Positions 23,975-36,026 of a stretch of 39,912 nucleotides of DNA are shown one piece after another. Origin of the DNA: a virus. Position 1 is the first letter of the stretch; the number at the start of each line of letters is the position of its first letter. The DNA is taken from positions 1 to 39,912 of IMG/VR virus record IMGVR_UViG_3300045988_081371. One strand, 5' to 3'. The notes under the pieces were generated by a model. It searched no databases. It had not been told where the DNA came from and worked only from the letters and a program-made list of their open reading frames with translations. Both the position numbers and the translations under genes were made by a program.

Positions 23975-24031
23975 GTGCAAAAAAGGATTCCCGCAGATAT
24001 GGCAACGGCTGCCACGTCTGCGGGAATCCTT
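23975..24031 (-). terminator. Rho-independent terminator after the RHH gene
   Basis: 15-bp arms AAGGATTCCCGCAGA (23983-23997) and TCTGCGGGAATCCTT (24017-24031), followed on the minus strand by TTTTTTGCAC. Confidence 0.65.
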
Positions 24032-24084
24032 GCGTATAGCACTATTTGCAATTATTGATTACATATTAGGCAAATAATGCGCTT

Positions 24085-24264
24085 TTAATGCTCTCCGTCC
24101 ATTCGTGCGCGAATGGATTGATTGATATAAGCGTTGACGGACTGTCCAGCCCTGGCGGCCGCCTGCGCTATTTGCTCTTTGTCTCCCTTTGGTACTAGCA
24201 AATTGATTCGATCATAAGCTTTTGCAATATAATCATTTTGCCACTTTGCTTTTCGATTTGCCAT
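24085..24264 (-). CDS. Ribbon-helix-helix (Arc/CopG-like) DNA-binding protein (59 aa)
   Basis: MANRKAKWQNDYIAKAYDRINLLVPKGDKEQIAQAAARAGQSVNAYINQSIRARM shows the beta-strand plus two-helix pattern of Arc/CopG family proteins. SD AGGGGTGA. Confidence 0.6.
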   Translation of the reverse strand: MANRKAKWQNDYIAKAYDRINLLVPKGDKEQIAQAAARAGQSVNAYINQSIRARMDGEH

Positions 24265-24281
24265 AAAATCACCCCTGCGAC

Positions 24282-24388
24282 ATGATATCACGCGCAGAAA
24301 CGTTGCGCAACGTACAAAATCCACAAAAACACGTTGCGCAATTTGTTTATTCTGCCGCCTTGACTACGTTGCGCAACGACGCTATGAT
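24282..24388. promoter_or_regulatory. Divergent promoter/operator region: three CGTTGCGCAA(CG) operators and two sigma-70-like promoters
   Basis: Operators lie at 24301-24312, 24332-24341 and 24367-24378. The plus promoter is TTGACT (24360-24365), 17 nt, TATGAT (24383-24388), with operator 3 inside the spacer. The minus promoter is TTGCGC (revcomp of 24305-24310), 17 nt, TATCAT (revcomp of 24282-24287), overlapping operator 1. Confidence 0.65.
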
Positions 24389-24448
24389 TAAGGCACAAAA
24401 GCACAACACCGCAGGCCAACAGCCGCGGCACGCATGGAGGAACACACT

Positions 24449-24946
24449 ATGAAATACTTCACCAACATTACCACGCTGGACGAACTCAAGAAAGAATACC
24501 GCCGCCTCGCTTTTGCAAACCACCCCGACCGGGGCGGCGACGTTGCCACGATGCAGGCCATCAACGCCGAGTACGAGCAGCTGCATGAGCTGCTTAAAAA
24601 TCAGCACAACGCAGGCGCTGACGAATACCACCAGACCACCGAGACCGCCGCCGAATTTATCCATATCATTTCCGCACTTATCCGCTTGGGCGGGCTGGAA
24701 ATTGAGCTTTGCGGCTCTTGGCTTTGGATCGGCGGTAACACCCGCGAGCACAAAGAGGCTTTAAAGGCCGCTGGCTGCCGCTGGAGCAACGGAAAGAAGC
24801 TGTGGTACTGGCACCATGAAGAGGCTGGCCGCAAATGGCGCAAGGGTAACACCACAATGCAGGAAATCCGCCGGAAATATGGATCACAGGTTTATACCGC
24901 TTCTGGCGAATCCAGCAAATACGAAAAGATCGGGGCAACGGCGTAA
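24449..24946 (+). CDS. J-domain (DnaJ-like) protein (165 aa) with an uncharacterised W/K-rich C-terminal domain
   Basis: N-terminus LDELKKEYRRLAFANHPDRGGDVATMQAINAEYEQL carries the HPD tripeptide in J-domain helix II/III context. SD GGAGGAA. The C-terminus reads LCGSWLWIGGNTREHKEALKAAGCRWSNGKKLWYW. Confidence 0.8.
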   Translation: MKYFTNITTLDELKKEYRRLAFANHPDRGGDVATMQAINAEYEQLHELLKNQHNAGADEYHQTTETAAEFIHIISALIRLGGLEIELCGSWLWIGGNTREHKEALKAAGCRWSNGKKLWYWHHEEAGRKWRKGNTTMQEIRRKYGSQVYTASGESSKYEKIGATA

Positions 24947-24980
24947 GCCGTTCCCCCTCACAATGAAAGGAGTGCACATC

Positions 24981-25160
24981 ATGGCAAAAAACTTTAAGCT
25001 TGCAGACATCGACCGCAACGCGCTTTACACGGTATCCATCATTGACAGCTGGATTGACGACGCAAAGCAGCAGTTAATGACCGGTTCTGACTTGATCAGC
25101 TTTACAAATGCCGCTGCGCATCTGTACGACATCCACGCCGAAAGGGTGGACGCAGAATGA
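24981..25160 (+). CDS. Hypothetical protein (59 aa)
   Basis: SD AAAGGAG lies 9 nt upstream of ATG 24981. Begins MAKNFKLADIDRNALYTVSIIDSW. Confidence 0.55.
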   Translation: MAKNFKLADIDRNALYTVSIIDSWIDDAKQQLMTGSDLISFTNAAAHLYDIHAERVDAE

Positions 25161-25609
25161 GCTATCACAACCTTTTGCAGCAGTACGGCCACGAACAGCC
25201 GCAGGCAGAAACCCGCGTTTATATTTTTGCGCAAGCTCCCGCGAAGCTCTCCACGCCGTCAGAGGTGGCGTACAGAGACGCAGAAGCGGCGCGTATGATT
25301 AAGCGGCTGGAATCACTTGTTGACGATCTAAAGGACTATAGGCAGGCACTGGCGGCGCGATACGCGGAACTTGAAACGTTGCCGTATTGTTACGCCCTTA
25401 AGCTTGAGCGCGTCCCACACTGGAAAGGACATATTGAGTATATCATCACCATCAAAAAGACGCTTAGCGACGGCACAGGAACCGAGGAGCTGCGCGAGGT
25501 TTACCCCGGCAAAGAGCGCCGTGCAGCTTTTGCCCGATATGATGAGCTTAAACGCCAGCGTCCCGGCATTCCGGCAGAAATGGATATTGCAAAGCGCCCT
25601 TGGGAATAA
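25157..25609 (+). CDS. Hypothetical protein (150 aa)
   Basis: ATGA overlap with the preceding ORF. No motif recognised. Confidence 0.6.
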   Translation: MSYHNLLQQYGHEQPQAETRVYIFAQAPAKLSTPSEVAYRDAEAARMIKRLESLVDDLKDYRQALAARYAELETLPYCYALKLERVPHWKGHIEYIITIKKTLSDGTGTEELREVYPGKERRAAFARYDELKRQRPGIPAEMDIAKRPWE

Positions 25610-25644
25610 ACAACAGCACCCGGAAAAAGCCGGGTGCTGTTGTT
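25609..25644. terminator. Bidirectional terminator hairpin between convergent units
   Basis: Perfect 15-bp arms AACAACAGCACCCGG / CCGGGTGCTGTTGTT with loop AAAAAG, flanked by T-rich sequence on both strands. Confidence 0.75.
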
Positions 25645-25894
25645 ATTTAAGCCGTGTTTGTCTTTTGCTTTTTGCCTTTGCAATCGCCTCCCACTGCTTC
25701 AAAATATCCTCAATTTGCGGTTTGCATGCCGGATTTTTGATTTTTCCGGTGCAAATCCGGTTTATTGTCTGCTTATTCTTTCCGCAGGCTGCGGCAAGAT
25801 CCTCTTGCCGCTTTTTAAGCTTTTTGAGCCGGTGCTTTACCTGCTCACCGTATGTCTTTTTGTGGTATCGCTCGTCCGGATATGCCCGCGACAT
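25643..25894 (-). CDS. Small basic HTH protein (83 aa), last gene of the early operon
   Basis: RQEDLAAACGKNKQTINRICTGK is an HTH-like segment, with K/R-rich ends. SD AAAGGGGG. Confidence 0.55.
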   Translation of the reverse strand: MSRAYPDERYHKKTYGEQVKHRLKKLKKRQEDLAAACGKNKQTINRICTGKIKNPACKPQIEDILKQWEAIAKAKSKRQTRLK

Positions 25895-25895
25895 C

Positions 25896-26222
25896 TTAGC
25901 CCCCTTTTGCCGTTTCTGTCATTCGTGCAAATGCCGACATCCGTTCTTTAAGCCGCGCCAGCTTCTCCCGCCGCCAGCGCATAACATCCGCCCGGCAATT
26001 GTAAAGCATGATCATCTGCTCAAGCATGATTTGCACATCTGCGATTTCTTCGGCCAAATGGTTGTAGTCTCCCTCCAAGCGCAATGTTTTGCAAAGCTCT
26101 TTTTGCAGCTCGGCCATTTCTTCAATTGCCACAATTTTTTGATTTTTATCGCCGTAAACCGCCAGTGCATCCCGCAGGATTTGGCTTTCTGGCATTGCTT
26201 GGACTGATATTTCGATTTTCAA
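25896..26222 (-). CDS. MazG-like nucleotide pyrophosphohydrolase (108 aa)
   Basis: IEEMAELQKELCK...LAEEIADVQIMLEQM matches the EExxE...ExxD helix pair of all-alpha NTP-PPases. TTG start behind AAGGGGG. Confidence 0.6.
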   Translation of the reverse strand: MKIEISVQAMPESQILRDALAVYGDKNQKIVAIEEMAELQKELCKTLRLEGDYNHLAEEIADVQIMLEQMIMLYNCRADVMRWRREKLARLKERMSAFARMTETAKGG

Positions 26223-26725
26223 AATTTGACCCCCTTTATGTATTTGTCAAAATATGTGGCAGCGACCGCCATCGCCGCCCACATATCCGCAGAAAAGCCG
26301 TAGAAGAAGCCGGGATTCTTCTTCGTGCCCTTGCCGAAATTCGGCTGGCCGGGCGCGTAGCGGTCTACAAGTGCCTGCCGAATGTTTGCATCCTTTGCAC
26401 TCAAGCTTCCGCAAAGATGAAGCTTTTCTTCGCGGCGGTAGATTTTTGTCTGATTCGCCGCCTTGCTGTTGTCTATTGCATATTGCCAAAATCGGCCGAT
26501 CCAATAGCAGGTGTCAAACGTTTCTGCGCCTACGGCCATGCCCATTCCGGCAATCATTTCAATTGCCAAATCGTATCCGGTCGGCGTGCTTTTGATCACG
26601 TCCAAAACAATTCGGTTCGGCTCTTTTCCAACTTTCAGAACGCGCCGAATTTCTTCGCCGTCGTGCTCAACTACCACATAGCCAGATTCGATGTTTCCGG
26701 GATCAATAGCCAAGATTGTGCCCAT
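26219..26725 (-). CDS. RuvC-like Holliday junction resolvase (168 aa)
   Basis: N-terminus MGTILAIDPGNIESGYVV has the catalytic Asp in the AIDPG motif. Size and position are typical. SD AAAGGAGGTG. Confidence 0.7.
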   Translation of the reverse strand: MGTILAIDPGNIESGYVVVEHDGEEIRRVLKVGKEPNRIVLDVIKSTPTGYDLAIEMIAGMGMAVGAETFDTCYWIGRFWQYAIDNSKAANQTKIYRREEKLHLCGSLSAKDANIRQALVDRYAPGQPNFGKGTKKNPGFFYGFSADMWAAMAVAATYFDKYIKGVKF

Positions 26726-26939
26726 CAGGCCACCTCCTTTGTTCAAAGTCTTCGCATTCCTCGCCGGAAAAGCACATCCGTTCCAGTTCTTGTTCAGAAA
26801 ACCGTTCCGCCTTGTGTTTCAAGCACCGGTACGGATAAACGTAGTTCTTTCTATACTCCAGATGCTTGCAAGTCAGGCAGCAATCCTGCATCAGCTTTCC
26901 TCCTCCCAAACTACCGCGTGCAAACCGCAGCCCGCTCAT
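26703..26939 (-). CDS. Cys-rich hypothetical protein (78 aa)
   Basis: ATGA overlap with the upstream stop. Contains MQDCCLTCKHLEY...RCLKH... Confidence 0.55.
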   Translation of the reverse strand: MSGLRFARGSLGGGKLMQDCCLTCKHLEYRKNYVYPYRCLKHKAERFSEQELERMCFSGEECEDFEQRRWPDGHNLGY

Positions 26940-27205
26940 TCCGTCACGCCTCCCGTATTTGTCTGATACTCGCCGTAGCTGCAAAAATCCGTTTCCCTCC
27001 GCCAGAAGCCATCATTCGTTCTCAGGCAGACCATAGCGCCGTTCGGTTTGCTATCATAGGAACCGTATTTGCAGTCCTTGCAGCGCACCACCTCCGCAAC
27101 GTCAGCGGCGGGCAGCTTCCTGATTTCTGAAAACGCCGTAGCGTAATCCCCGCATGTCCGTGTCGTGATTTCAAGCGCATCATTGCGCCGGATATAATCA
27201 GTCAT
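26936..27205 (-). CDS. Cys-rich hypothetical protein (89 aa)
   Basis: VVRCKDCKYGSYD...MVCLR...FCSYGE motif. The start overlaps the upstream stop. Confidence 0.6.
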   Translation of the reverse strand: MTDYIRRNDALEITTRTCGDYATAFSEIRKLPAADVAEVVRCKDCKYGSYDSKPNGAMVCLRTNDGFWRRETDFCSYGEYQTNTGGVTE

Positions 27206-27398
27206 ACGCCATATACTCCCTTACGATTCTTCTTTGCATTTCCGGTTTAAAGGCATAAAGCGGCGTGCATCTACTCAGTATCTTTGCTTTCAAAAGCCGC
27301 TCCGCCTGCCTCTTGGTCAGCTGCCGCTCTCGCTTCTTCGGCGGCAGCTCGCCTTTTGCCGCCGCAATGGCGGTTGGGTTGTGCTTATGTTGCCCCAT
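27198..27398 (-). CDS. Small basic hypothetical protein (66 aa)
   Basis: Start moved to MGQHKHNP behind GGAGGTG. Confidence 0.5.
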   Translation of the reverse strand: MGQHKHNPTAIAAAKGELPPKKRERQLTKRQAERLLKAKILSRCTPLYAFKPEMQRRIVREYMAYD

Positions 27399-27618
27399 CG
27401 TACCGCACCTCCACGCCAGCCTCGTCCAGCAGGTCGTCAATATCGGTGTCCACGCTGCTACCAATAAAATCGCCATTTTCGTCGTAGTAGTTGTACTCCG
27501 TGGTCGGTCGGGATTCTATCCCTGCAAACTCTTTTAAAAGTCTCAGATATTCGTCGTTATCAATGAACAGAGCCTGATGGAGTTGTCTCAACTGCGCTTC
27601 GGTTATGTGCTTAGCCAT
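27385..27618 (-). CDS. Acidic hypothetical protein (77 aa)
   Basis: Start moved to MAKHITEAQLRQL. The ATG overlaps the stop of a 21-codon upstream mini-ORF. Confidence 0.5.
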   Translation of the reverse strand: MAKHITEAQLRQLHQALFIDNDEYLRLLKEFAGIESRPTTEYNYYDENGDFIGSSVDTDIDDLLDEAGVEVRYDGAT

Positions 27619-27676
27619 CTTTCTTGCCCTCCATTTCCTGCAGTGCCGCCTCGCGGCTGATGTATTTGTCAGCCAT
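27611..27676 (-). CDS. Possible 21-codon mini-ORF (MADKYISREAALQEMEGKKDG)
   Basis: Strong SD AAAGGAGGTG lies 5 nt upstream of ATG 27676, and the ORF overlaps both neighbours. Hand translated. Confidence 0.25.
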   Translation of the reverse strand: MADKYISREAALQEMEGKKDG

Positions 27677-27920
27677 GATTCACCTCCTTTAGACAAAGTT
27701 CACTCGCTGCCATCGCTCCCGCCCGGATTGCGGATTCCTCCGTTATTTTGCCCTCGTCCATTTTCTTCCGCATCAGCTTCGCGTACATGTTGATTATCAG
27801 CACGTCCTCTACCACACTTGCGTTTGTCTTCCAGCGCGGCTTTACCGTCAGCCCCCAGTTTGCATGGTTCCGGCTCGTGCCGATGGCCATAAGTATCTTT
27901 CTTGCACGTTTTCTGGTCAT
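27669..27920 (-). CDS. Hypothetical protein (83 aa)
   Basis: ATGA overlap with the upstream stop. Begins MTRKRARKILMAIGTSRNHANWG. Confidence 0.55.
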   Translation of the reverse strand: MTRKRARKILMAIGTSRNHANWGLTVKPRWKTNASVVEDVLIINMYAKLMRKKMDEGKITEESAIRAGAMAASELCLKEVNHG

Positions 27921-28459
27921 GCCTTGCCCATTTCTTCCAGCGCCTTTTCGGCCTCCTCGCGGGTTAAAAATACGGTTTTTCCAAATTCCCTTGCGTCCGT
28001 GCCAAAATATGCCTTGCACGGTCCGCCCGCACAGGTATCCTTTTGGCAATGAACCGGCATATCCGGGCACACTGCTGATAATGTTGGCGCAACAAAGTAC
28101 ATCGGCCAGACTTTATCATGCCGCGTTACCCATACCTCCGCGCCCGGCTTGCACGGCAGCACGACGCACCGCCCGTCCTTGTCGGCTTCGGCGAGTTCGC
28201 GGAGGCGGGTATAATTGCAAAAGCTTTCCAAATCTGCAAGGCGCATGAGTTTCAAAGTAATCTCGTCTGCCTTATCTTTCGGCAGGACTTCCTCCGGCTC
28301 ACATCCGCTGTCCTCGTAGGCCGCAAGTCGCTCACACACCGCTGTTTCAAACGGGCAATCCTTGATTTTGCACCCGCTGCCGTAGCACGGTCCTTTGAAG
28401 CAGCGCGGATAATAGGCATGACGGGTTTGTTCGTCATTCCATTCAGTCAGTCGTTCCAT
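27917..28459 (-). CDS. Cys-rich hypothetical protein (180 aa)
   Basis: SD GGGAGGAA. Contains CFKGPCYGSGCKIKDCPF and the RLAAYEDSG motif common in Firmicutes phage early proteins (from memory). Confidence 0.65.
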   Translation of the reverse strand: MERLTEWNDEQTRHAYYPRCFKGPCYGSGCKIKDCPFETAVCERLAAYEDSGCEPEEVLPKDKADEITLKLMRLADLESFCNYTRLRELAEADKDGRCVVLPCKPGAEVWVTRHDKVWPMYFVAPTLSAVCPDMPVHCQKDTCAGGPCKAYFGTDAREFGKTVFLTREEAEKALEEMGKA

Positions 28460-28471
28460 AGCTCTTCCTCC

Positions 28472-28828
28472 CTATTCAATCCAAAACGTCGCAACCGGAA
28501 CAAGCTCTTCATACCATTGCTGGAAATCATTCCAATCGTTAAGAATGTTCCGGAAAAATTGTGCTGTCCCTTTTACCGTTCCCCACCCGTTCGGTGCTTC
28601 GTATTCTTTGAAAGAATCTGGGTTCTGCTCCAACGTTCTCAAGCCAGCCTCGATTTTCGGAATTACGTCCACGCAAAGCCCGTTGTTCTGGCAGTTCCTC
28701 CATTCCAGCCCCGTCGACTTCTCTATAATTTTCCGGACGTTCCACGTTATATTTGCGTCGCACGTACCAACTGGGACGTAGGCATCAACCCCTTCGGCTT
28801 TGACCTTGAACGAAATATTGTAGCTCAT
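28472..28828 (-). CDS. Hypothetical protein (118 aa)
   Basis: ATGA overlap with the upstream gene. No motif recognised. Confidence 0.6.
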   Translation of the reverse strand: MSYNISFKVKAEGVDAYVPVGTCDANITWNVRKIIEKSTGLEWRNCQNNGLCVDVIPKIEAGLRTLEQNPDSFKEYEAPNGWGTVKGTAQFFRNILNDWNDFQQWYEELVPVATFWIE

Positions 28829-29328
28829 GCCTTGCCTCCTTCCTTCGGCGCTTCCGGCAGCGGCATCCAGTGGGTAACTACGCAGTCTACCGGATTGTTG
28901 TATACATCATCGGGATTAAACTGCCGGTTCTCCCACCATCCCTCCGGGATGTAGTAATCATCCGCCTCCTCGTCGTACAGGCCATAGCAGTAGATGTCGC
29001 TCCAGTTCCACGCACTGTCCTGCGTCAGCATCTTCCCGTCCTCGTAGATAGCCGGTATCACGAAAATGTATCCGTTTCGATTGCAAACGGCCAAAACATC
29101 TGTCTCGGGCTCCGGCAGCCGCTCCGCCACCGGAATCCACCTCTGTTTCTCCCGCAGCACCACATTCTCGGCGGTCAGGCGCTCGATGAGGTCAGCAGCT
29201 TCCGACATCACTGCCGTCAAGCAATATTCACCCTCCGATCTGCTTGCTGGGCAATTTTCACAGTCCCCGCCATCGTCTGGGTCCATGACGCACGTCCGCA
29301 GCGCCTGTACGATTTCCTTTTCCGTCAT
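28825..29328 (-). CDS. DUF551-like protein (167 aa)
   Basis: The C-terminal half WIPVAERLPEPETDVLAV...VVTHWMPLPEAP matches the DUF551 pattern as I remember it. ATGA overlap with the radical-SAM stop. Confidence 0.6.
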   Translation of the reverse strand: MTEKEIVQALRTCVMDPDDGGDCENCPASRSEGEYCLTAVMSEAADLIERLTAENVVLREKQRWIPVAERLPEPETDVLAVCNRNGYIFVIPAIYEDGKMLTQDSAWNWSDIYCYGLYDEEADDYYIPEGWWENRQFNPDDVYNNPVDCVVTHWMPLPEAPKEGGKA

Positions 29329-30194
29329 GTCGTCTCCCTCCAAAATTCGTTGAACTTCTTTCCTGTAATAATCGGGCGGCACCATTCGCGCTGGAATCGC
29401 CTCCACTCCGGATCGTACTTTCCATCCTCGTCCCGAAACAGCATGGCATACGGCACAAATCCTGCCTGCATGGTCTGCATCAAGCGCGTTTCTGCATCCT
29501 CAAAGCTATCTCCGTCGTAGCCGCACAGCACATAGCAGCACATGGTGTGGCTTGCCGGTCGAAATCCTGCCAATCGCAGTTTCTTGCCCATATCCACCAG
29601 CGGTTCCAGATCGTCACGAGTGTCATATGCCGTGTATAGCCTCGCCGGTTTTACTTCATGCAAAAGATCCGCCTGCCACTGTTGAAGCAGTGCCGGCTCT
29701 AATCCACCCGTAAAAACCGGTCTGTGTGGTTGTCTCTTGAGCATCTCACAGACTGCCCGAAAATGCGCTTCTGACGTTCCAAGAATGTTATCATCAAGGA
29801 TGTTCCAACCGTCCACAATCGGAAGCTCCTGAATTACGCCATGTGCGCAGCGCGGAACAGAGCAGAACCAGCATTCTTTCGTGCAACCGCGAGAAGTGAA
29901 GATCATGCCATCTCTCAGATACATTCCCGGCACAAAATCGCCCATGCGGTCATCGAACGCTGGGCCGCCGACCTCTACCGGTACACCGAGAATCTGCCAT
30001 GCGTCGTACAGCTCCTCCGCACGTTCCAAATCCCATGTAAAGGTCACGGAAATATGCACCGCCTCAACGCCTGCTTTGATGCAGTCTGCAATGTTCTCGA
30101 TCGTCGGCTCTCTGAAGAACGCCAGAGCATCAGTCGGCGAAGCGTTTGTCTTTCGCGGAAAAACACGGGCAATCGTGGTTTGTTCTAAGTCCAT
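29325..30194 (-). CDS. Radical SAM enzyme (289 aa) with a short N-terminal Rossmann-like (B12-binding-domain-like) region
   Basis: CxxxCxxC in FTSRGCTKECWFCSVP, a GGE-like VFTGGLEPALL about 55 residues later, and a further Cys cluster MCCYVLCGYDG. Start at MDLEQTT behind GAGGA. Confidence 0.75.
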   Translation of the reverse strand: MDLEQTTIARVFPRKTNASPTDALAFFREPTIENIADCIKAGVEAVHISVTFTWDLERAEELYDAWQILGVPVEVGGPAFDDRMGDFVPGMYLRDGMIFTSRGCTKECWFCSVPRCAHGVIQELPIVDGWNILDDNILGTSEAHFRAVCEMLKRQPHRPVFTGGLEPALLQQWQADLLHEVKPARLYTAYDTRDDLEPLVDMGKKLRLAGFRPASHTMCCYVLCGYDGDSFEDAETRLMQTMQAGFVPYAMLFRDEDGKYDPEWRRFQREWCRPIITGKKFNEFWRETT

Positions 30195-30237
30195 TGCCGT
30201 CCTCACTCCCGCAGCGCCTTTACAATTTCCTCACTTG

Positions 30238-30480
30238 TCATTTCCGTTTCCCCCTTTGCCTTTCTCGCTGCACGTGCCGCAGCGCCCTTTTTAGCCCCGC
30301 TGTTGGCATATAGCGATTTTCGTTTTCTGCGGCCATCCGTTTCCTTTCTGCGTATTCCGCTGTTTTTTCAGCTTCGTATTCCTTGTAGGCCGTACACGCT
30401 TTTCTGCATTCTGCGCTTCTTTTGGCGCAGTCCTTTTTACATGGGCAGCGCTCATCGAAGCGATCTGGTAATCTGCTCAT
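30238..30480 (-). CDS. Cys-rich basic protein (80 aa)
   Basis: DERCPCKKDCAKRSAECRKACTAYKEYEAEK followed by a K/R-rich tail. SD AAAGGAGG. Confidence 0.6.
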   Translation of the reverse strand: MSRLPDRFDERCPCKKDCAKRSAECRKACTAYKEYEAEKTAEYAERKRMAAENENRYMPTAGLKRALRHVQRERQRGKRK

Positions 30481-30653
30481 TTTCGCCTCCTTTTGGCAAG
30501 CAGCCGCCGGAATGGCTCACAGGTAGCTTCCCAGCTCTTGCAAAAAGCTTCCGCGCTTGATTCGCACTGTGCTTTTTTGTGCCCATACCCGCTGCATTTC
30601 CCAGCTTTCAAATCCTCACACTGCTGGCAAAAGCTTGTGCTCCATGTTTTCAC
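30477..30653 (-). CDS. Cys-rich small protein (58 aa, VKTWSTSFCQQCEDLKAGKCSGYGHKKAQCESSAEAFCKSWEATCEPFRRLLAKRRRK)
   Basis: GTGA start overlap with the upstream stop and ATGA overlap with the downstream start. SD GGGGAGA. Hand translated and below the ORF-track cutoff. Confidence 0.5.
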   Translation of the reverse strand: MKTWSTSFCQQCEDLKAGKCSGYGHKKAQCESSAEAFCKSWEATCEPFRRLLAKRRRK

Positions 30654-31411
30654 GTTTCATCTCCCCATCCGCCTTTCGGCGTTTCCTGCATCATGCGTTC
30701 CATGGCGCGGCGCTCAAATTCTCCGGGCGCGTCTCCGTGCTGGACAATCCGCTGCTGCGGGATTTGCCGCTGTCCGCCCTTTAGCCGATCAAATACAATT
30801 CCCTGATAGCCGCTTGCCATGCTGGTACGTATTACTTCAGCAACAGCCGATTCGCCGTATTTTTCCGCATTGTTTCGGATTTGAGATACAAGATTCCGTA
30901 GTCCCTCTTCCTTGTAGCTCTGCCGCTTTTCCTGCTTATATTTCAGCCATGACGTAACAGCTGAAAGTAATTCTCCGGAAAATGTCTCTTCCAAAAAAGA
31001 AGCAGGAATATTTCCATTTCCATTTCCATTTCCTAAAGGTAATACCACGGTATTACCATCTGGCATACCATCCGGTATACCAACACCCATACCACCGGTA
31101 TCCCTTTTCTTATTCCAGCGCTTTTCGATATTTGCTTTCTGCTTCAGACAATGCGCCGCTCTTGCGGCAATCTCCTTGTCCATTCTTACGTTAAAGTACT
31201 TTCCGTCCTCGTCCTGCTGAAACTTACCCATAACCTCGCTGGACGGCGTTTTGACCGCCCGTTTGATCTCCTGTATTGTCAAATGCCCGCGCTCTCTTTG
31301 GAGGCACAGGAGCGTGATATACTGCCCACGCTCCCGCATATCCATTAGAGATACGGCGGAGAGGAAATCCGAAGTGTAGAACAATACAGCTGGGTCTTTC
31401 CCGCCTGCCAT
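30650..31411 (-). CDS. DUF1376-type replication protein (253 aa)
   Basis: The N-terminus PAVLFYTSDFLSAVSLMDMRERGQYITLLCLQRERGHL matches the DUF1376 (YdaU-like) pattern. A low-complexity linker DTGGMGVGIPDGMPDGNTVVLPLGNGNGNGN separates two halves. SD TAAGGAGGTG. Confidence 0.7.
   Translation of the reverse strand: MAGGKDPAVLFYTSDFLSAVSLMDMRERGQYITLLCLQRERGHLTIQEIKRAVKTPSSEVMGKFQQDEDGKYFNVRMDKEIAARAAHCLKQKANIEKRWNKKRDTGGMGVGIPDGMPDGNTVVLPLGNGNGNGNIPASFLEETFSGELLSAVTSWLKYKQEKRQSYKEEGLRNLVSQIRNNAEKYGESAVAEVIRTSMASGYQGIVFDRLKGGQRQIPQQRIVQHGDAPGEFERRAMERMMQETPKGGWGDET
31011..31104. repeat. Iteron-like repeat cluster inside the replication gene (candidate origin)
   Basis: (TTTCCA)3 at 31011-31033, then GGTAATACC (31038), GGTATTACC (31049), GGCATACC (31062), GGTATACC (31074), CCATACC (31087) and GGTATCCC (31097). 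Confidence 0.5.
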
Positions 31412-31423
31412 CTACTCACCTCC

Positions 31424-31885
31424 TTAGAATAGAAGCTCGTCGTTCAGCGCGTCCGCATCCAGCTCCATCTGCGGCATATCCGAGCCTTTAAATGGAACTG
31501 GCGTCGAATCTGGCAGCTGGGAGAATTCTGCGCTCTTCGCCGCCTGCTGGCTCTGGTCGCTCTGCGGCTTGGAATCGCCGAAGTATACGTTTTCCACCAC
31601 AATCTCCGCCGAGCGCCGCTTGTTGCCATCCTTGTCCTGCCAGTTGCGGATCTGCAAACGGCCTGTGACGATCATCATCCGACCCTTTGAAAAGTACTTG
31701 TCGATCATCTCAGCAGTGCCGCGCCATGCGGTGCAGTCGATGAAATCAACCTCTCTTTCCTTGCCCGTTTCGCAATAGTCGCGTTCAACGGCCAGCGTAA
31801 AAGATGTGACCGCAACGCCGCTCTGTGTCCGGCGCAGTTCTGGATCTCTGACCAGACGACCCTGCACCTCAATTCGATTCAGCAC
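31424..31885 (-). CDS. ssb: Single-stranded DNA-binding protein (153 aa)
   Basis: OB-fold N-terminus MLNRIEVQGRLVRDPELRRTQSGVAVTSFTLAV and an acidic tail ending DELLF. GTG start behind GAGG. Confidence 0.9.
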   Translation of the reverse strand: MLNRIEVQGRLVRDPELRRTQSGVAVTSFTLAVERDYCETGKEREVDFIDCTAWRGTAEMIDKYFSKGRMMIVTGRLQIRNWQDKDGNKRRSAEIVVENVYFGDSKPQSDQSQQAAKSAEFSQLPDSTPVPFKGSDMPQMELDADALNDELLF

Positions 31886-32711
31886 TTTCTACCTCTGGTG
31901 CGCCAATCACCTCTCCGGTGCTTTCGTCAACGGCAACCGCTTCCGCATCTACGACAGCGACCGGGACGCTGAACATATCCTCGTCGATCTCCGTCTTGAC
32001 CGTGCTGTCCTGCGCAATCTGCCGGACAAAATCGGATTTCATAGGTGCATATTTCAGAACCTTTTTCAGGACGGTTTTCTTCGCCATTTCCTCGAAATTG
32101 GTCTGCCAAGGACCCGCGTCGTAAGCCTTGCTGTACTTCTGTGCATGGGCGCGAACGTCATCCAATGTCATGATCTCAAAGCCATACCCGCCGTCCTTTG
32201 TCTTAAACATTGCCCACACGTTCACAGGTTCGCCACGGTCGCCGTTCAGCTTCGGGATGAATTTCAAACTGCATTCCGTGCCATACTCGGCGACCAGCGT
32301 ATCATTTGCATGCCCGATCTGCGCCTGAATCGTTTGAATTTCTCCGGAGCGGTATGCAAGATCAATCATGCCTTTGTACCCAAGCTGGAACTGGCATTCA
32401 AGTCGGCGCTGCTTGCTGTTCCAGTACGGAATCAGATAAGCTTGTCCAAGCGGTGTGTTCGGCTCAAGTCCGAGCTGGGCGGCGGTCATCATCGCGCCCA
32501 AGAACGACTGTGGCGTACACTGTGCTAACTTCGGATTCGTTGACAGCGCGGAAAGCGTGATCCGCGTAAAACGTTCCGGTGTCATGACGGAGGGCAACGC
32601 CTTTTTGATCTCTCCCTCCATCTGCTTGATATACTGCTGCATGGTCGGCTGCGCCGAGCCTGTTTGCGCCTTAATGGCAGTCTGTGCTGCAGCCTGCTGG
32701 ATCTTGTTCAT
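31869..32711 (-). CDS. recT: RecT-family single-strand annealing protein (280 aa)
   Basis: AQLGLEPNTPLGQAYLIPY...QFQLGYKGMIDLAYRSGEI is a typical RecT core. TAATG overlap with the exonuclease gene. Confidence 0.9.
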   Translation of the reverse strand: MNKIQQAAAQTAIKAQTGSAQPTMQQYIKQMEGEIKKALPSVMTPERFTRITLSALSTNPKLAQCTPQSFLGAMMTAAQLGLEPNTPLGQAYLIPYWNSKQRRLECQFQLGYKGMIDLAYRSGEIQTIQAQIGHANDTLVAEYGTECSLKFIPKLNGDRGEPVNVWAMFKTKDGGYGFEIMTLDDVRAHAQKYSKAYDAGPWQTNFEEMAKKTVLKKVLKYAPMKSDFVRQIAQDSTVKTEIDEDMFSVPVAVVDAEAVAVDESTGEVIGAPEVESAESN

Positions 32712-33661
32712 TATTCATCCTCCTTGTTCATTTCTGTAATTTTGAATGGCCGGGCCTGCACCGTTTTATAGAACGGCGTCAAATCGATATCCGGGTATGC
32801 CTCTTTAAAGGCTTTGGGCTGGAACGTCTGCCGGTTTTGCTGCTTCCAAGAGACGTTGTAGCCGTTGCAGGCAGCCCGCTCTGCCGTGCCCATATCGAGC
32901 TTGATCGTGTTTTCAATCTCGCGGCTGTGCTCCGCCAGTGCCGCCGCCTGACGTTTGATCTGCATATACTCCGACAGCATTTGCTCACGTCCGAATAAAT
33001 CAAGCTGTTCGCCGTTGCTATCGGCATAAACCGTGCTGATCGCGTCCGTCGTCGCCTCCGAACCGTCCGGCGCAGGCGGGGCATCTTCCTCGACGCATCG
33101 CCAGAATAGCTTCTCCGCTTCCATCAGCGCGGAGATTTCTGCCTCATCGCGCTCTAGTGTATAGGTGAAAAAACCACGACCGAAAACCAGAACAGCAAGA
33201 TACCAACGCTTCATACCGGTAACAGCCAGATAATGCACGCATTGTGCGTAGTACTTTTCCGGAAACTCCACGCCGCGGAATTGCTTGATGTCCAGCGTCG
33301 AGGTTGTCTTGCATTCTAGCCCCGCGTCCTCGCCGATGATCTTCCGGTCAATGTCGGCGTGCGCCCACGGATACGCAGAATTCCGAATGATGTAGTTGCA
33401 GCGCCGCACCTTTTTCCCAGATGCTTCCTCAAACCGCTTCGCAACATACTCCTCAAGATCTCTACCAATCCGCATCGCTTCTGTTTCATCACGCTCTGCA
33501 AGCCGACCGGTTTTATCCATCCAGACGGTGTAAGGGCTTGCCCACCTGCTGAGTCCTACGATTGCGGCGGCATCGCTACCGCCAATGGACTTCCGCCGTT
33601 CGGCCAGCCATTCCTCTCGGCTCATGCCTGCTGTGCTGACGGTCTGCAATTTCCCACTCAT
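32711..33661 (-). CDS. YqaJ/lambda-Exo-type recombination exonuclease (316 aa)
   Basis: REEWLAERRKSIGGSDAAAIVGLSRWASPYTVW plus DID...ECK motifs of the PD-(D/E)XK YqaJ family, paired with recT. Confidence 0.85.
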   Translation of the reverse strand: MSGKLQTVSTAGMSREEWLAERRKSIGGSDAAAIVGLSRWASPYTVWMDKTGRLAERDETEAMRIGRDLEEYVAKRFEEASGKKVRRCNYIIRNSAYPWAHADIDRKIIGEDAGLECKTTSTLDIKQFRGVEFPEKYYAQCVHYLAVTGMKRWYLAVLVFGRGFFTYTLERDEAEISALMEAEKLFWRCVEEDAPPAPDGSEATTDAISTVYADSNGEQLDLFGREQMLSEYMQIKRQAAALAEHSREIENTIKLDMGTAERAACNGYNVSWKQQNRQTFQPKAFKEAYPDIDLTPFYKTVQARPFKITEMNKEDE

Positions 33662-33678
33662 TTCAATTCTCCTGTTTC

Positions 33679-33885
33679 TTAAGCTGTTTTCTTCTCATAA
33701 CCCAGCGAGTCTGCCGTCATATCGGCAAATCCGCCCGCCTCGCTGATCATCCATTTTAAAAATGCCGGTACGCAGCATTGATGAATGCAGCCCTCATCAC
33801 CTTTTCTGATGATTTCACCGGCGTAAATCTCGCCTCCACAGTATGCGCATTGCGCAACCGGCGCTTCTTGCTGTCTGTCCTCCAT
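33679..33885 (-). CDS. Small Cys-containing protein (68 aa)
   Basis: TAATG overlap. CAYCGGEIYAGE...CIHQCC is a zinc-ribbon-like spacing. Confidence 0.5.
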   Translation of the reverse strand: MEDRQQEAPVAQCAYCGGEIYAGEIIRKGDEGCIHQCCVPAFLKWMISEAGGFADMTADSLGYEKKTA

Positions 33886-34154
33886 TATCTGGCCTCCCAG
33901 ATAATGTATCCTCCACCGGCCGCAAGCAGAGCGACAATCAAAAAGATTGCCGGGGCGTGCGGGACGCCGATTGCCAAAAATGCAGCCGCTGCGCCCGCCG
34001 AGAACGCCGATGCAAAAAGGCTTACCAGCGCGCCGCTTCTCCGTGCCCTTGCCCGGATCTCTTTTAGATGCCGGAGGCGCGCCGCGCGTTCGCCAAGCTC
34101 CTCCGTGCGGGCGCGGTCGTGGTTTAGCCACGTCAAAATTTCTACATCACACAT
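33885..34154 (-). CDS. Small membrane protein (89 aa, two hydrophobic segments)
   Basis: Start MCDVEILTWLNHD overlaps the upstream stop. Contains LVSLFASAFSAGAAAAFLAIG and IFLIVALLAAGGGYII. Confidence 0.5.
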   Translation of the reverse strand: MCDVEILTWLNHDRARTEELGERAARLRHLKEIRARARRSGALVSLFASAFSAGAAAAFLAIGVPHAPAIFLIVALLAAGGGYIIWEAR

Positions 34155-34356
34155 AGTTCTGTTGCTCCTCCTTAATGTGCTTAAGATAAGCACTTAATTT
34201 TTCCAGCCGTGTGCGCCGAAGCGCCGCGGCGTTTACTTTTTGCGCGTCAGTCAGCGCAAACACCTCGCAAGTCTCCAATGCATCCGCCTGCGCGATATCC
34301 AGCGCATCGGCAATGTCCTGCATCTGCTGCGCGCTCAATGTGACGTCGTATCTCAT
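34147..34356 (-). CDS. Hypothetical protein (69 aa)
   Basis: ATGA overlap with the upstream gene. Confidence 0.55.
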   Translation of the reverse strand: MRYDVTLSAQQMQDIADALDIAQADALETCEVFALTDAQKVNAAALRRTRLEKLSAYLKHIKEEQQNYV

Positions 34357-34580
34357 ACCGGCGTCAGCGCTTTCAGCTTTTCGTGCAGCGCAGCGCAGGC
34401 CGCTTCTGCTTTTTTGTAAGATTCTGCAATTTCGCCACGCGCTTTCCGGATTTCTACATCTTTTTCTTTTTCTGCGTTGATCTCTTCCAAGATTGCCCGC
34501 TGGCGCAATCTGGCCTTTTCGTGGCCGAGCGCGATCATTAGGTCAAATCGCTCCAGCGTGGTTAGCTCTAGCTTGTACAT
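34353..34580 (-). CDS. Hypothetical coiled-coil protein (75 aa)
   Basis: SD GGAGGG lies 7 nt upstream of the ATG. Confidence 0.6.
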   Translation of the reverse strand: MYKLELTTLERFDLMIALGHEKARLRQRAILEEINAEKEKDVEIRKARGEIAESYKKAEAACAALHEKLKALTPV

Positions 34581-34758
34581 GGATTATCCCTCCAAAAATT
34601 TGATAAACGGCAGCCGGGGGATTTTCACCCGGTGGGCGCTGACGCAGCACACCGGGAAGCCAAGCTGCTCCGGCCGCTGCCGCGCCAGTAATGATAAGGG
34701 AGCCTCCGGTTTGCTCCATCATTTCTTTTGCCTTTTCAAGGCTCAATTTGTTTACCAT
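34543..34758 (-). CDS. Hypothetical protein (71 aa)
   Basis: SD GAGGA lies 7 nt upstream. The 38-nt overlap with the next gene makes the 3' end uncertain. Confidence 0.4.
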   Translation of the reverse strand: MVNKLSLEKAKEMMEQTGGSLIITGAAAAGAAWLPGVLRQRPPGENPPAAVYQIFGGIIHVQARANHAGAI

Positions 34759-34781
34759 TCCAAATCCTCACTTCTAAAGTT

Positions 34782-35021
34782 TTAATACGGATACGAGATT
34801 GCATCTCGCACCGTTTCGATTGGGATGTGCAGCCCGCGCATCAAGCGCAGAGCCTTATCCATGTACGCTGTAGGGCTGTCAAACAGCTTGTACAGCGTAT
34901 TTGCGCAGCAGCCCGCATATCGGCATGCCGTGGCAACCGGCACTGACTGCGCGGCCATCTCGCCGCGAATTAACGCAGTTAATCGGTAGTCGGTTGTTCG
35001 TTCGACTTTCATTTTCGGCAT
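34782..35021 (-). CDS. Small putative DNA-binding protein (79 aa)
   Basis: SD TAAGGAGGG. HTH-like VATACRYAGCCANTLYKLF. Second gene of the early operon. Confidence 0.55.
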   Translation of the reverse strand: MPKMKVERTTDYRLTALIRGEMAAQSVPVATACRYAGCCANTLYKLFDSPTAYMDKALRLMRGLHIPIETVRDAISYPY

Positions 35022-35034
35022 TCAAATGCCCTCC

Positions 35035-35244
35035 TTACATATCAGCCTCCCTTACAATGTCTGCAACCGTGACGTGATACAGTTCGGCAAGTTTTTCGTG
35101 ATACTTCTTTGATGGCTTGTCTTGCCCGGTTTCCCAATGACATATAGCCGTCTGCGATACTCCGAGTGCTCTTGCTACATCTAATTGCCGCAAATTAGCG
35201 GCATCTCGGAGCTTCCGCAAGTGTGATCGACGAATACAATAAAT
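35035..35244 (-). CDS. Cro-like XRE-family HTH protein (about 69 aa; non-canonical ATT start proposed)
   Basis: HTH LRKLRDAANLRQLDVARALGVSQTAICHWETGQDKP. The only strong SD (AAAGGAGGAA, revcomp of 35251-35260) lies 8 nt upstream of an in-frame ATT at 35244-35242. The nearest in-frame ATGs are over 300 nt upstream, within or beyond the divergent promoters. Confidence 0.6.
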   Translation of the reverse strand: MYCIRRSHLRKLRDAANLRQLDVARALGVSQTAICHWETGQDKPSKKYHEKLAELYHVTVADIVREADM

Positions 35245-35284
35245 TGCGCATTCCTCCTTTAAAAGCTTATAAATTAAGTTTTTG

Positions 35285-35313
35285 TTGACACCCACCAGGA
35301 AGCGCGTTAGAAT
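35285..35313 (+). promoter_or_regulatory. Sigma-70-type promoter for the repressor/lysogeny operon
   Basis: TTGACA (35285-35290), 17-nt spacer, TAGAAT (35308-35313). Confidence 0.65.
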
Positions 35314-35381
35314 GAAAGTGCTGAAATCATCAAAACCCGCTCCCCAGGTGGCTCTTTGCTGTACCTCTTGGGTACACTTAT

Positions 35382-35428
35382 ATAATAACTCATAAAATTC
35401 GGTTTGTAAATCTGTTTTGCCGAATTTT
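35382..35428 (-). promoter_or_regulatory. Early (Cro) promoter with a flanking 9-bp inverted repeat (operator candidate)
   Basis: On the minus strand: TTTACA (revcomp of 35405-35410), 17 nt, TATTAT (revcomp of 35382-35387). The inverted repeat AAAATTCGG (35394-35402) / CCGAATTTT (35420-35428) brackets the -35. Confidence 0.55.
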
Positions 35429-35467
35429 TTAGGTTTCGTATAACTGCACAAATTCAGAGGTTGAACT

Positions 35468-35821
35468 ATGGATATAACGCTAACAAGAATTCTCTCGTTG
35501 CTTCCGACTGACGATACCGGAAAATACCTACGTGGTTCAAAGGCCGAATTTGCTCGAAGCATCGGATATGGAAGTGGGGATATCGTCTCTATGTGGGAAA
35601 ATGGGACGAGCACTTCATATTTCAAAAAGTTGCATCAAATTGCTGCACAGTATAATGTGTCTGTTGAGTGGCTTCGAGGCGAGACGGATATAAAAAATCC
35701 TCCCAGCGCTGACGCTGAGAGGAAATTAAACGAAGAAATTATTTCAAGGCTTGTTTCGCTGTCTCCTGAAGAACTTGAGAAAGTGGACGCTTTTGTGCAA
35801 GGACTCTTAGCATCTCATTGA
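35468..35821 (+). CDS. CI-like XRE-family repressor (117 aa, no peptidase domain)
   Basis: SKAEFARSIGYGSGDIVSMWENGTSTSYFKKLHQIAAQYNVSVEWLRGE is a typical HTH_3 layout. It is divergent from the Cro-like gene. Confidence 0.75.
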   Translation: MDITLTRILSLLPTDDTGKYLRGSKAEFARSIGYGSGDIVSMWENGTSTSYFKKLHQIAAQYNVSVEWLRGETDIKNPPSADAERKLNEEIISRLVSLSPEELEKVDAFVQGLLASH

Positions 35822-36026
35822 GCTTGTACCGCTCTTCATAGCTCATGTTTTCAATGTATCGTTCTGCCTCTTCTCTTGTCATGATTTTTTCCTTTCTTCG
35901 TTTGTGTTGATATTATTTTAGAACTTTTGTTCTGCGTATTCAAGATGCTAGTTTCTACAAAATCCGGTTTCTTTTTTCTATACTCAATAATTTAGTAAGT
36001 CCGATTTATTGGACAGGAGATGTGCT

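Follow-up and report, generated by a model that had tools for sequence, protein, structure and literature searches.

A stand-alone phage radical-SAM protein in an exchangeable slot of an early operon, with a tentative role in DNA modification

What does a solitary radical-SAM enzyme do among the early genes of a phage? The window, as we call the whole stretch of 39,912 nucleotides that was analysed (IMG/VR virus record IMGVR_UViG_3300045988_081371), belongs to a tailed, temperate phage that has an integrase and is a prophage; its closest relatives are found in gut Oscillospiraceae. The original prediction, made from the letters of this DNA, had singled out a 289-aa ORF with radical-SAM motifs and placed it among replication genes of the early module; our analysis bore this out and located it in the early replication and recombination operon. 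The gene and the parts of its product considered here are as follows.

29325..30194, minus strand: radical-SAM gene, 289 aa (ORF list, family alignment, start position, PHROG 9298, AlphaFold2 model)
29862..29885, minus strand: CxxxCxxC motif (C-TKE-C-WF-C), predicted [4Fe-4S] cluster ligand (family conservation)
29697..29708, minus strand: GGLE (GGE-type) motif, putative SAM binder by analogy with other radical-SAM enzymes (family conservation)
29907..30179, minus strand: N-terminal mini-Rossmann domain, predicted to have three strands and two helices (Pfam PF02310, PDB profile search, AlphaFold2, conservation)

The longest ORF at this position extends over 29325-30206 on the minus strand and would encode 293 aa from a GTG at 30206. 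Because homologues in the family alignment start near 'IARVFPRKT', and because a GAGGA ribosome-binding site lies 5' of the ATG at 30194, the product is likely the 289-aa protein that begins at this ATG. All of the strings quoted earlier for the ORF were found (SRGCTKECWFCSVP, VFTGGLEPALL, MCCYVLCGY, and AVHISVTF...GGPAFD), with the Cys codons of SRGCTKECWFCSVP at 29883-29885, 29871-29873, and 29862-29864 on the minus strand. A promoter and terminator scan detected no autonomous transcription signals around the gene.

In an alignment of 41 relatives (A1), residues C108, C112, C115, G167, G168, and E170 are invariant. In members of only 31-50% identity, the Cys triad and the GG pair are conserved at 98-100%, and across the family as a whole the GG pair is conserved at 91-96%. 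This conservation upholds the canonical CxxxCxxC and the GGE-like motif that had been read from the sequence, and it argues that the ORF did not arise by chance. As in the PF04055 superfamily, an aromatic residue precedes the third Cys. The window protein scores 19.9 bits against PF04055 (gathering cut-off 29.5), the same profile is matched at E < 0.01 by 54 of 81 diverse members, and some close relatives carry a precomputed PF04055 match. The AlphaFold2 model (pLDDT 90.1, pTM 0.85), in which strands and helices alternate, retrieved radical-SAM enzymes as the top Foldseek matches at probability 1.0, namely AprD4 (6fd2) and phage COG1032 proteins. PHROG 9298 ('radical SAM domain protein') was matched at E 1.3e-15 by residues 101-276, corresponding to positions 100-277 of its 305-position profile; the match leaves out the N-domain, and no functional information is attached to this group. 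One of its members, from a Methanomassiliicoccales virus in which the gene stands at the end of the early gene block, shares 32% identity with the window protein in the core. Judged from conservation and from the predicted fold, the 289-aa ORF encodes a genuine radical-SAM enzyme.

The 'second Cys cluster' that had been noted at MCCYVLCGY fared less well. Only C224 is invariant in close relatives, the wider family has no conserved Cys there, and the alignment of diverse members contains no conserved Cys outside CxxxCxxC. Given this lack of conservation, the protein has neither a SPASM nor a twitch domain, and a search for one found no conserved C-terminal auxiliary-cluster Cys motifs. A search of the PDB with the single sequence gave no match, and a profile search gave matches only at E about 1, weak ones to cobalamin-binding proteins among them. 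NCBIfam, Pfam, and PADLOC returned no above-threshold match to any named subfamily, and no curated family (NrdG, QueE, MiaB/RimO, class B, or SPL) came near its threshold. The PADLOC anti-phage defence models, viperins included, matched neither the window protein nor two distant members, and no recognisable DNA-binding domain was found in the protein.

The mini-Rossmann domain of ~95 residues carries conserved RVFPRxTxxxPxD and S-x-T...GGPA motifs. PF02310 (B12-binding) matches residues 39-85 at E 8e-4, with 19.6 bits against a cut-off of 32.1, and the match spans only positions 43-94 of the 121-position profile, so that the first ~40 positions are missing. A single one of 81 family members matches PF02310 at E < 0.01. 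Together with the Foldseek matches to AprD4 and phage COG1032 proteins, these results support the earlier view of the first 100 residues as a truncated B12-binding-type Rossmann domain, and they suggest a weak resemblance to the central part of the B12-binding domain.

The phage-borne family to which the protein belongs is large and has no name. We found it to comprise 2844 clusters at 90% identity and, at 50% identity, 1719, of which 859 had E <= 1e-10. Among the matches listed, nearly all members stand alone, are 270-300 aa long, and match over their full length. They are carried by phages and prophages of several bacterial phyla under the database name "hypothetical protein", and the loci with taxon names come mostly from gut, rumen, or sediment organisms. 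Apparent fusion proteins (P0125, P0233, P0205, P0210, and others) have extensions without Pfam domains and look like gene-calling read-through; of such cases, one with an intein alone proved informative. We found no paper characterising this family in the literature. A tblastn search against annotated phages yielded one distant archaeal-virus homologue (two accessions) with uninformative neighbours, and megablast of window bases 20000-39912 gave short fragments only.

Charge varies within the family. The window protein is acidic (pI 5.0; median 5.3-5.8 in its own clade), and the majority of clades are basic, with a median pI of about 9. Inteins tend to occupy conserved active sites of nucleic-acid-metabolism enzymes, and one member of the family has an HNH intein inserted within its CxxxCxxC motif. 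We counted this intein and the basic median pI for an action on DNA and the acidic pI of the window's own clade against it.

The genes around the radical-SAM gene, and two repeats that bracket it, are listed here from the upstream side.

30650..31411, minus strand: replication/primosomal-type protein with a weak DUF1376 match, context only (profile searches)
30477..30653, minus strand: p58, a small basic orphan protein with 6 Cys, unrelated neighbour (0/86 loci; one homologue cluster)
30238..30480, minus strand: p80, a small basic protein with 5 Cys, not counted as a partner (tblastn, database clusters, clade survey)
30204..30244, no strand: 41-nt direct repeat, upstream copy, covering the mini-ORF MTSEEIVKALRE (repeat search; end of sister-phage homology)
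29291..29331, no strand: 41-nt direct repeat, downstream copy, the 5' end of the DUF551-like gene, overlapping the radical-SAM stop (repeat search)
28825..29328, minus strand: DUF551-family gene (Pfam PF04448, E 2e-11; homologues in 57/86 loci)

The two 41-nt copies are 76% identical and spaced by 913 nt. The p80 and radical-SAM genes, which had been described as chained by overlaps, are in fact separated by a spacer of 31-43 nt. Within it is a mini-ORF of 12 codons, MTSEEIVKALRE (30203-30241, minus strand), which resembles what might remain of a DUF551-like gene start. The DUF551-family gene is a frequent downstream neighbour of the radical-SAM gene in close relatives. Two sister phages define the same boundary. 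L242 is 90% and L243 91% identical to the window, with homology ending at 30248 in L242 and at 30209 in L243; both keep p58 and p80 and then have a C5 methyltransferase (PF00145, E 4.5e-12) in the radical-SAM slot. Thus, the slot is exchanged with a DNA methyltransferase in sister phages. The radical-SAM gene is a swappable accessory cassette of the early operon, and the upstream repeat copy marks its upstream edge.

Loci for a wider survey of gene neighbourhoods were sampled with a degenerate DNA pattern for RVFPRRTxxTPxD. Across 113 clades there is no obligate partner gene: in Pfam tallies of the first gene upstream (-1; 93 clades) and the first downstream (+1; 86 clades), no family exceeded ~6% of clades. 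PAPS reductase, a candidate for such a partner, is common in no clade but the window's own and lies within ±5 genes in 8 of the 113. The survey did reveal a position-specific linkage of the family to DNA methyltransferases. A methyltransferase stands at -1 in 16 of 109 clades (15%) vs 39 of 1289 (~3%) at positions ±2 to ±10, an enrichment of about five-fold (odds ratio 5.5, one-sided Fisher p = 1.5e-6) that is to be read with clades defined at 80% identity and mutually not fully independent. The tally used greedy longest-ORF calls and locally built HMMs, with a Pfam cross-check at -1 and +1 only. Every methyltransferase at -1 shares the strand of the radical-SAM gene, with overlaps of 1-4 nt in several cases. 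A first cluster analysis had pointed to C5 methyltransferases as the main neighbour and hence to a 5mC-specific hypermodification. Because wider sampling gave methyltransferases of all four classes at this position (C5, N6_N4, MT-A70, and D12), we dropped a strict dependence on 5mC.

Single loci can be more elaborate. In one (L099), the radical-SAM gene sits between two methyltransferases, of which the C5 one is three ORFs upstream, and in another (L103), it is flanked by a Dam gene and by a fusion of PAPS reductase with a C5 methyltransferase. PAPS-reductase-like and DUF5131 genes recur nearby. On the other hand, a methyltransferase is absent from -1 in 85% of clades, the window itself encodes none, and the co-location could reflect a shared accessory-gene hotspot.

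Taking these observations together, we assign a probability of roughly 0.4 to the reading that the gene encodes a self-sufficient radical-SAM enzyme that modifies DNA against host restriction. The same idea, part of the original prediction, gained circumstantial support from the methyltransferases at -1 and from the C5 gene in the sister-phage slot; the substrate, DNA, and the chemistry are what we infer. Such an enzyme would be compact, with one [4Fe-4S] cluster held by CxxxCxxC, a GGxE motif, a partial (beta/alpha) barrel, and the mini-Rossmann N-domain. The reduced cluster would cleave SAM to give a 5'-deoxyadenosyl radical, which would in turn abstract hydrogen from a macromolecule, most probably phage DNA or already methylated DNA. 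The outcome would be a covalent mark installed or reworked without oxygen, helping the phage to escape host restriction. Candidate chemistries are C-methylation, with or without cobalamin, or another radical transformation.

The radical-SAM enzymes known to act on DNA are spore photoproduct lyase (SPL) and phage M6 gp53 only (PMC8989533). Like the window protein, gp53 is phage-encoded, and it serves DNA hypermodification, which makes it a precedent for phage radical-SAM chemistry on DNA; however, it is SPL-like and acts on 5-hmdU within a cluster of kinase, transferase, and PLP-enzyme genes (PMC8989533), whereas the window enzyme stands alone. A weak SPL match was seen in just 2 of 81 family members. 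That gp53, the sole known radical-SAM installer of a DNA modification, acts as part of a multi-gene pathway counts against a stand-alone action on DNA.

It is a doubtful but worthwhile conjecture that we see here the first radical-SAM enzyme that, standing alone, writes or rewrites a covalent DNA mark without oxygen, either by C-methylation of bases or by processing the methylated bases made by the preceding methyltransferases. Processing of this kind would be the anaerobic counterpart of oxygen-dependent TET/JBP or AlkB chemistry. If true, the family would represent a new and widespread way in which phages of anoxic habitats modify or repair DNA, an oxygen-independent route in gut and sediment viromes, and a new enzyme scaffold. 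Radical-SAM chemistry on DNA is almost unexplored, and the family is large, phage-borne, and compact enough for biochemistry. The methyltransferase linkage and replacement yield a concrete and cheap hypothesis. If an action on DNA proves false, the family would still be a defined target and would offer a clean case of cassette exchange in phage early regions.

An unlikely alternative, yet one with several points in its favour, is that the substrate is a free nucleotide, an immune signalling molecule, or SAM itself, and that the enzyme serves replication or counter-defence while leaving DNA untouched, for example by an AprD4- or viperin-like radical dehydration or by SAM depletion. The best PDB match of the model in Foldseek is AprD4 (6fd2; E 1.5e-4, probability 1.0), the radical-SAM 1,2-diol dehydratase of apramycin biosynthesis, in which the radical-SAM core is likewise preceded by a Rossmann-type domain of the B12-binding kind. 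This domain of AprD4 is not known to bind cobalamin. A metabolite substrate would also suit a lone gene and the acidic window protein, a MazG-like NTP pyrophosphohydrolase is encoded in the same operon, and dNMP kinase and nucleoside 2-deoxyribosyltransferases are occasional neighbours of the family. However, the TM-score to AprD4, normalised to the query, is just 0.47 at 12% sequence identity, and the likeness is generic to the COG1032 clan. AprD4 has 454 aa, a C-terminal domain, and an aminoglycoside substrate within a biosynthetic cluster, whereas the phage protein is only 289 aa long, its N-domain has three strands, and it lacks pathway partners. In addition, there is no conserved nucleotide-pathway partner, and SAM depletion sits awkwardly beside tight coupling to SAM-dependent methyltransferases.

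Less likely still, the enzyme may be a minimal relative of MiaB/RimO or of the class B enzymes that alters host or phage tRNA, rRNA, or protein. In MiaB and RimO, too, a flavodoxin-like N-domain precedes the radical-SAM core, weak sub-threshold MiaB/RimO matches occur in 27 of 81 members, members also weakly match class B families that act on proteins or lipids, and the PDB profile search weakly matched RimO (2qgq). Most family clades are basic, and so small a partial barrel would be expected to stay open on one side, with room for a macromolecule. Whatever the substrate, class B (COG1032) enzymes with a B12-binding domain are among the closest known systems: their models are the commonest weak NCBIfam matches (TIGR04072 in 45 of 81 members, PhpK in 27, MJ0865 in 23, and HpnJ in 23), the S-x-T...GG motifs are conserved, and the best BFVD matches are phage COG1032 proteins. 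Nevertheless, these class B scores are ~10-25 bits vs cut-offs of 250-600, and the phage protein has about half the usual length, with neither a C-terminal domain nor the complete N-terminal B12-binding domain (PF02310) required of class B enzymes. Unlike MiaB/RimO, it has no three-Cys auxiliary-cluster motif in the N-domain (there is no conserved Cys in residues 1-100) and no TRAM match, and the NCBIfam scores are ~11 bits against a cut-off of 251. Moreover, the family is associated in genomes with DNA-acting enzymes and not with translation genes.

We give little credence to an NrdG- or PflA-like activase that would boost the host anaerobic ribonucleotide reductase. The small size of the protein, the mostly gut, rumen, or sediment provenance of the taxon-named loci, and the replication module fit this idea, and 4-6 of 81 members weakly match NrdG2, BssD-activase, or PflA models (E 0.005-0.03). 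Yet these matches span the Cys motif only, and scores are ~12 bits against cut-offs above 130 (131 for NrdG2), agreeing with the original prediction, which had judged the enzyme too different from NrdG-type activases to be called one; neither nrdD nor pfl was found among annotated window ORFs or -1/+1 neighbours. Known activases of this type lack a Rossmann N-domain, and their cluster motif is close to the N-terminus, which sets the window protein apart from them. The earlier observation that partners for 7-deazaguanine synthesis are lacking also held: there was no QueE match, and no queC, queD, folE, or dpdA was present among annotated window ORFs.

In contrast to the modification of DNA that we prefer, the minor suggestion of the original prediction, a RiPP-type maturase acting on the adjacent Cys-rich p58 and p80, is very unlikely given the comparative data, the least credible of these readings, despite the adjacency of the genes in one translationally coupled operon. 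Homologues of p58 occur in 0 of 86 related loci and in one cluster among 5.8 billion proteins. Those of p80 occur in 29 of 86 close loci (tblastn) and in two close clusters only of the large database, and a p80-like motif upstream of the radical-SAM gene is confined, among 113 clades, to the window's own 80% clade. The p58-p80 pair is also present without the radical-SAM gene, in the sister phages with the C5 methyltransferase, and the family has neither SPASM/twitch Cys motifs nor a recognisable peptide-recognition domain. We conclude that p58 and p80 are not part of the radical-SAM unit.

The predicted overlaps upstream were confirmed, GTGA at 30650-30653 between the 253-aa gene and p58 and ATGA at 30477-30480 between p58 and p80, although p58 has 6 Cys rather than the 7 first reported. 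The replication/primosomal-type gene is the upstream end of this coupled chain. Because coupling runs through the entire operon, including radical-SAM/DUF551, where the DUF551 ATG overlaps the radical-SAM stop codon (ATGA), and DUF551/p118, it does not single out the mini-proteins. Cys-richness is likewise general in the operon, with 7 Cys in the DUF551-like protein and 13 in p180.

The ORF list gives the radical-SAM gene as 293 aa from a GTG on the minus strand (29325-30206). Because homologues begin near "IARVFPRKT" and a GAGGA lies upstream of the ATG at 30194, the likely product is the 289-aa protein read in the original prediction. As an observation that prediction was confirmed with minor corrections, and all the sequence strings it quoted were found in the window. 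The cluster motif maps as follows:

29883-29885, 29871-29873 and 29862-29864, minus strand: Cys codons of SRGCTKECWFC, from the sequence

The proposed radical-SAM identity is reasonable, given a match to PHROG 9298 ("radical SAM domain protein", E 1.3e-15), the conserved motifs and the fold model; the protein falls within, or adjoins, that PHROG. Pfam matches were weak and sub-threshold (B12-binding, residues 39-85, E 8e-4; Radical_SAM, residues 103-185, E 9e-4). An NCBIfam scan returned class B families only, at E 0.09 or worse, a PDB sequence search gave no match, and a PDB profile search gave only E ~1 matches to cobalamin-binding proteins and RimO. The active site is that of a canonical radical-SAM enzyme. 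C108, C112, C115, G167, G168 and E170 are invariant in 41 relatives, and members 31-50% identical to the window protein conserve (289-aa numbering) R10-V-F-P13, T16, P20, D22, S49, F52, D55, W66, GGPA 76-79, F87, P89, G90, T-S-R-G-C104, C108, C111, G129, D134, N136, H144, GG 163-164, D191, R237 and P248. The proposed second Cys cluster did not stand: C224 is its sole invariant Cys in the 41 relatives, and none outside the cluster motif is conserved in the distant members. Since no further Cys is conserved, the protein has a single site for a [4Fe-4S] cluster and lacks a SPASM or twitch domain.

The AlphaFold2 model was confident (pLDDT 90.1, pTM 0.85), with an N-domain forming a mini-Rossmann of three strands and two helices ahead of an alternating beta/alpha core. 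Together with the partial B12-binding match, this bears out the suggestion of a truncated B12-binding-type N-domain, which keeps the S-x-T...GG elements without the first third of the profile. AprD4 (6fd2) was the top Foldseek match in the PDB (E 1.5e-4), but with a query-normalised TM-score of only 0.47; the remaining PDB matches were generic radical-SAM enzymes and TIM barrels, and the top BFVD matches were larger phage "COG1032 Fe-S oxidoreductase" proteins.

Relatives form 2844 clusters at 90% identity in a large protein database, and among the best 120 of these nearly all are ~285 aa and almost none is named. An exhaustive profile search found 1719 clusters at 50% identity, 859 with E <= 1e-10, and almost all the matches listed were full-length and of 270-300 aa. 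RefSeq members from Acetivibrio and Alistipes shahii are labelled "hypothetical protein"; other labels are "Radical SAM core domain-containing protein" and, in IMG, "YgiQ". The nearest NCBIfam families for 81 diverse members were MiaB/RimO and four class B B12/radical-SAM families, the latter matched by 45, 27, 23 and 23 of them, in every case far below cut-offs. The family is therefore distinct and uncharacterised, inside the B12-like/methylthiotransferase clan of the superfamily. The window protein works like a member of that clan, yet membership tests placed it outside the class B enzymes and MiaB/RimO, as well as NrdG, QueE, SPASM/twitch and SPL. Literature searches turned up no characterisation of the family. 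The window protein is best seen as a new and compact form of a known type of enzyme, standing for a large phage-borne family without assigned function.

One 550-aa member outside the window, P0128 (from the representative search), carries an HNH-endonuclease intein exactly inside CxxxCxxC (SRGCPNK|C...HN|CWFC), whose splicing would restore the canonical motif. Isoelectric points, compared over family alignments A1 and A2 and over the radical-SAM ORFs of 222 loci, set the acidic clade of the window apart from the remaining larger clades studied, which are basic (pI ~9).

PHROG and Pfam annotation shows the window to be a temperate tailed phage, with the following features:

37532-38581, plus strand: integrase
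35035-35625, minus strand: repressor-like protein
32711-33661, leftward early operon: RecE-like exonuclease, followed by RecT, then SSB
30650-31411, early operon after SSB: replication protein, weak DUF1376 match
26219-26746, early operon: Holliday-junction resolvase, followed by a MazG-like pyrophosphohydrolase
beyond the early operon: structural genes for large terminase, major capsid protein and portal

Between the replication protein and the resolvase the order is p58, p80 (the two Cys-rich mini-proteins), the radical-SAM gene, a DUF551-family gene, p118 and p180. No promoter or terminator flanking the radical-SAM gene was found in a scan, and local profiles run over the whole window gave no match for a DNA methyltransferase or a PAPS reductase. 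In the structural module, a 1910-aa ORF (6072-11804) and a 483-aa ORF (11828-13279) had no PHROG match at E <= 0.001; judging from where they lie, they presumably encode tail or tape-measure proteins.

Two sister phages show what can replace the radical-SAM gene. L242 and L243 match the window at 90% identity over 3.2 kb and at 91% over 1.65 kb, respectively, and their homology breaks off (window 30248 and 30209) precisely where the gene has its upstream edge. Beyond p58-p80, both carry a C5 cytosine methyltransferase in its slot (L242 3232-3789; L243 3002-3640; PF00145, E 4.5e-12), preceded in L243 by a DUF7694 gene. The gene is also flanked by a repeat:

29291-29331 and 30204-30244: 41-nt direct repeat, 76% identity, 913-nt spacing

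This sequence forms the 5' end of the DUF551-like gene, and its upstream copy persists as a 12-codon mini-ORF, MTSEEIVKALRE. Furthermore, the ribosome-binding site and first eight codons (MDLEQTTI; window 30170-30210) match the start of PAPS-reductase genes (92-95% over 41 nt) that precede the radical-SAM gene in L084 (5116-5156), L028, L040 and L042, so the window arrangement is a recombinant junction. The radical-SAM gene shows the behaviour of a mobile accessory cassette.

We extended the comparison with 120 IMG/VR stretches, retrieved by a degenerate DNA pattern for RVFPRRTxxTPxD, and 30 bacterial-genome loci (Oscillospiraceae, Bacteroidales, Synergistes, Lentisphaerae, Betaproteobacteria, Actinomycetota, Dehalococcoidia and others), giving 222 loci with a family member, or 113 clades at 80% identity. 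Pfam tallies of the genes directly upstream (-1; 93 clades) and downstream (+1; 86 clades) revealed no obligate partner. The commonest -1 families were DNA methyltransferases (C5, 5; N6_N4, 5; MT-A70, 2; D12, 2), followed by PAPS reductase, DUF5131 and nucleoside deoxyribosyltransferase (2 each). With local profiles, a methyltransferase occupied -1 in 16 of 109 clades (15%) and +1 in 6%, against 39 of 1289 (3%) at positions ±2 to ±10, a position-specific enrichment at -1 (odds ratio 5.5, one-sided Fisher p 1.5e-6). All the -1 methyltransferases share the strand of the radical-SAM gene, in several cases with an overlap of 1-4 nt. In a Rikenellaceae/Alistipes prophage (L103) the gene is immediately preceded by a Dam gene and immediately followed by a PAPS-reductase/C5-methyltransferase fusion, which is 880 aa long (6819-9458). 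In L099 the next gene downstream is an N6_N4 methyltransferase, and a C5 methyltransferase lies three ORFs upstream. The initial idea of a specific reworking of 5-methylcytosine was dropped, since the association takes in all four methyltransferase classes.

DUF5131 (phage Gp37/Gp68) lies within ±5 genes in 12 of 113 clades (e.g., L129 7563-8465). RadicalSAM.org treats it as its own subgroup of the superfamily, and thus two different genes of radical-SAM type may coexist in some phage modification islands.

We suggest, with a probability of roughly 0.4, that the enzyme acts on a macromolecule, most probably DNA, for restriction evasion. Reductive cleavage of SAM would yield a 5'-deoxyadenosyl radical that takes hydrogen from the substrate, and a mark so installed or reworked would help the phage to evade restriction. 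Phage M6 gp53, which its authors call the first radical-SAM enzyme installing a DNA modification (PMC8989533), is a precedent. Further hints are that most clades are basic (pI ~9) and that one member has an HNH intein inside its CxxxCxxC. Against DNA as the substrate, no DNA-binding module is evident, the clade to which the window protein (pI 5.0) belongs is acidic (median about 5.3-5.8), and in 85% of clades no methyltransferase adjoins the gene; a hotspot for accessory genes in general could also account for the association. An enzyme for a nucleotide or small molecule is the next candidate, a doubtful one. A modifier of RNA or protein is somewhat less probable again; MiaB/RimO was matched by 27 of the 81 diverse members (NCBIfam), far below cut-offs. 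A glycyl-radical activase is highly improbable: the protein falls outside NrdG, and the annotated window ORFs (PHROG, Pfam) include no nrdD. Nor, as predicted, do those ORFs include queC, queD or folE. The original interpretation is thus supported in part: its lean towards DNA modification, like the enzyme identity, is reasonable, and its peptide link, like the second Cys cluster, is unsupported. We regard the family as a well-defined lead that experiments can readily address, not as a new mechanism already demonstrated.

The peptide link would have the enzyme act as RiPP maturase on p58 and p80, the least probable reading of all. The predicted overlaps are present between the 253-aa gene and p58 (GTGA, 30650-30653) and between p58 and p80 (ATGA, 30477-30480), but p80 is separated from the radical-SAM gene by a 31-43 nt spacer containing the 12-codon mini-ORF (30203-30241), and p58 has 6 Cys rather than 7. 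Stop/start overlaps run throughout the operon, including radical-SAM/DUF551 and DUF551/p118, so translational coupling is not special to the mini-proteins. In 86 related loci (80 from IMG/VR, 83-92% identical, and 6 encoding contigs, 65-78% identical), p58 homologues occurred in none and p80-like proteins in 29, and of the 113 clades the window's own was the sole one with the p80 motif C-x3-C...C-x3-C ahead of the radical-SAM gene. Among 5.8 billion proteins p58 has one homologue cluster and p80 two close ones. In the 86 loci the -1 gene varies greatly even beside near-identical enzymes: p80-like, PAPS reductase, C5 methyltransferase, other DNA-methyltransferase-like, ASCH-like, RusA-like or replication protein, several labelled by sequence reading rather than profile search. 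The closest p58-p80 relatives, in L242 and L243, precede a C5 methyltransferase and settle the point: by sequence comparison, p58 and p80 are not partners of the enzyme.

Nor is Cys-richness special to the mini-proteins (30238-30653; p80 5 Cys, p58 6), because the DUF551-like protein (28825-29328) has 7 and p180 (27917-28459) has 13. These early-operon proteins may be zinc-binding modules. In L001 and other relatives, the genes on either side of the radical-SAM gene share an 'EIVxALRxC' N-terminal module.
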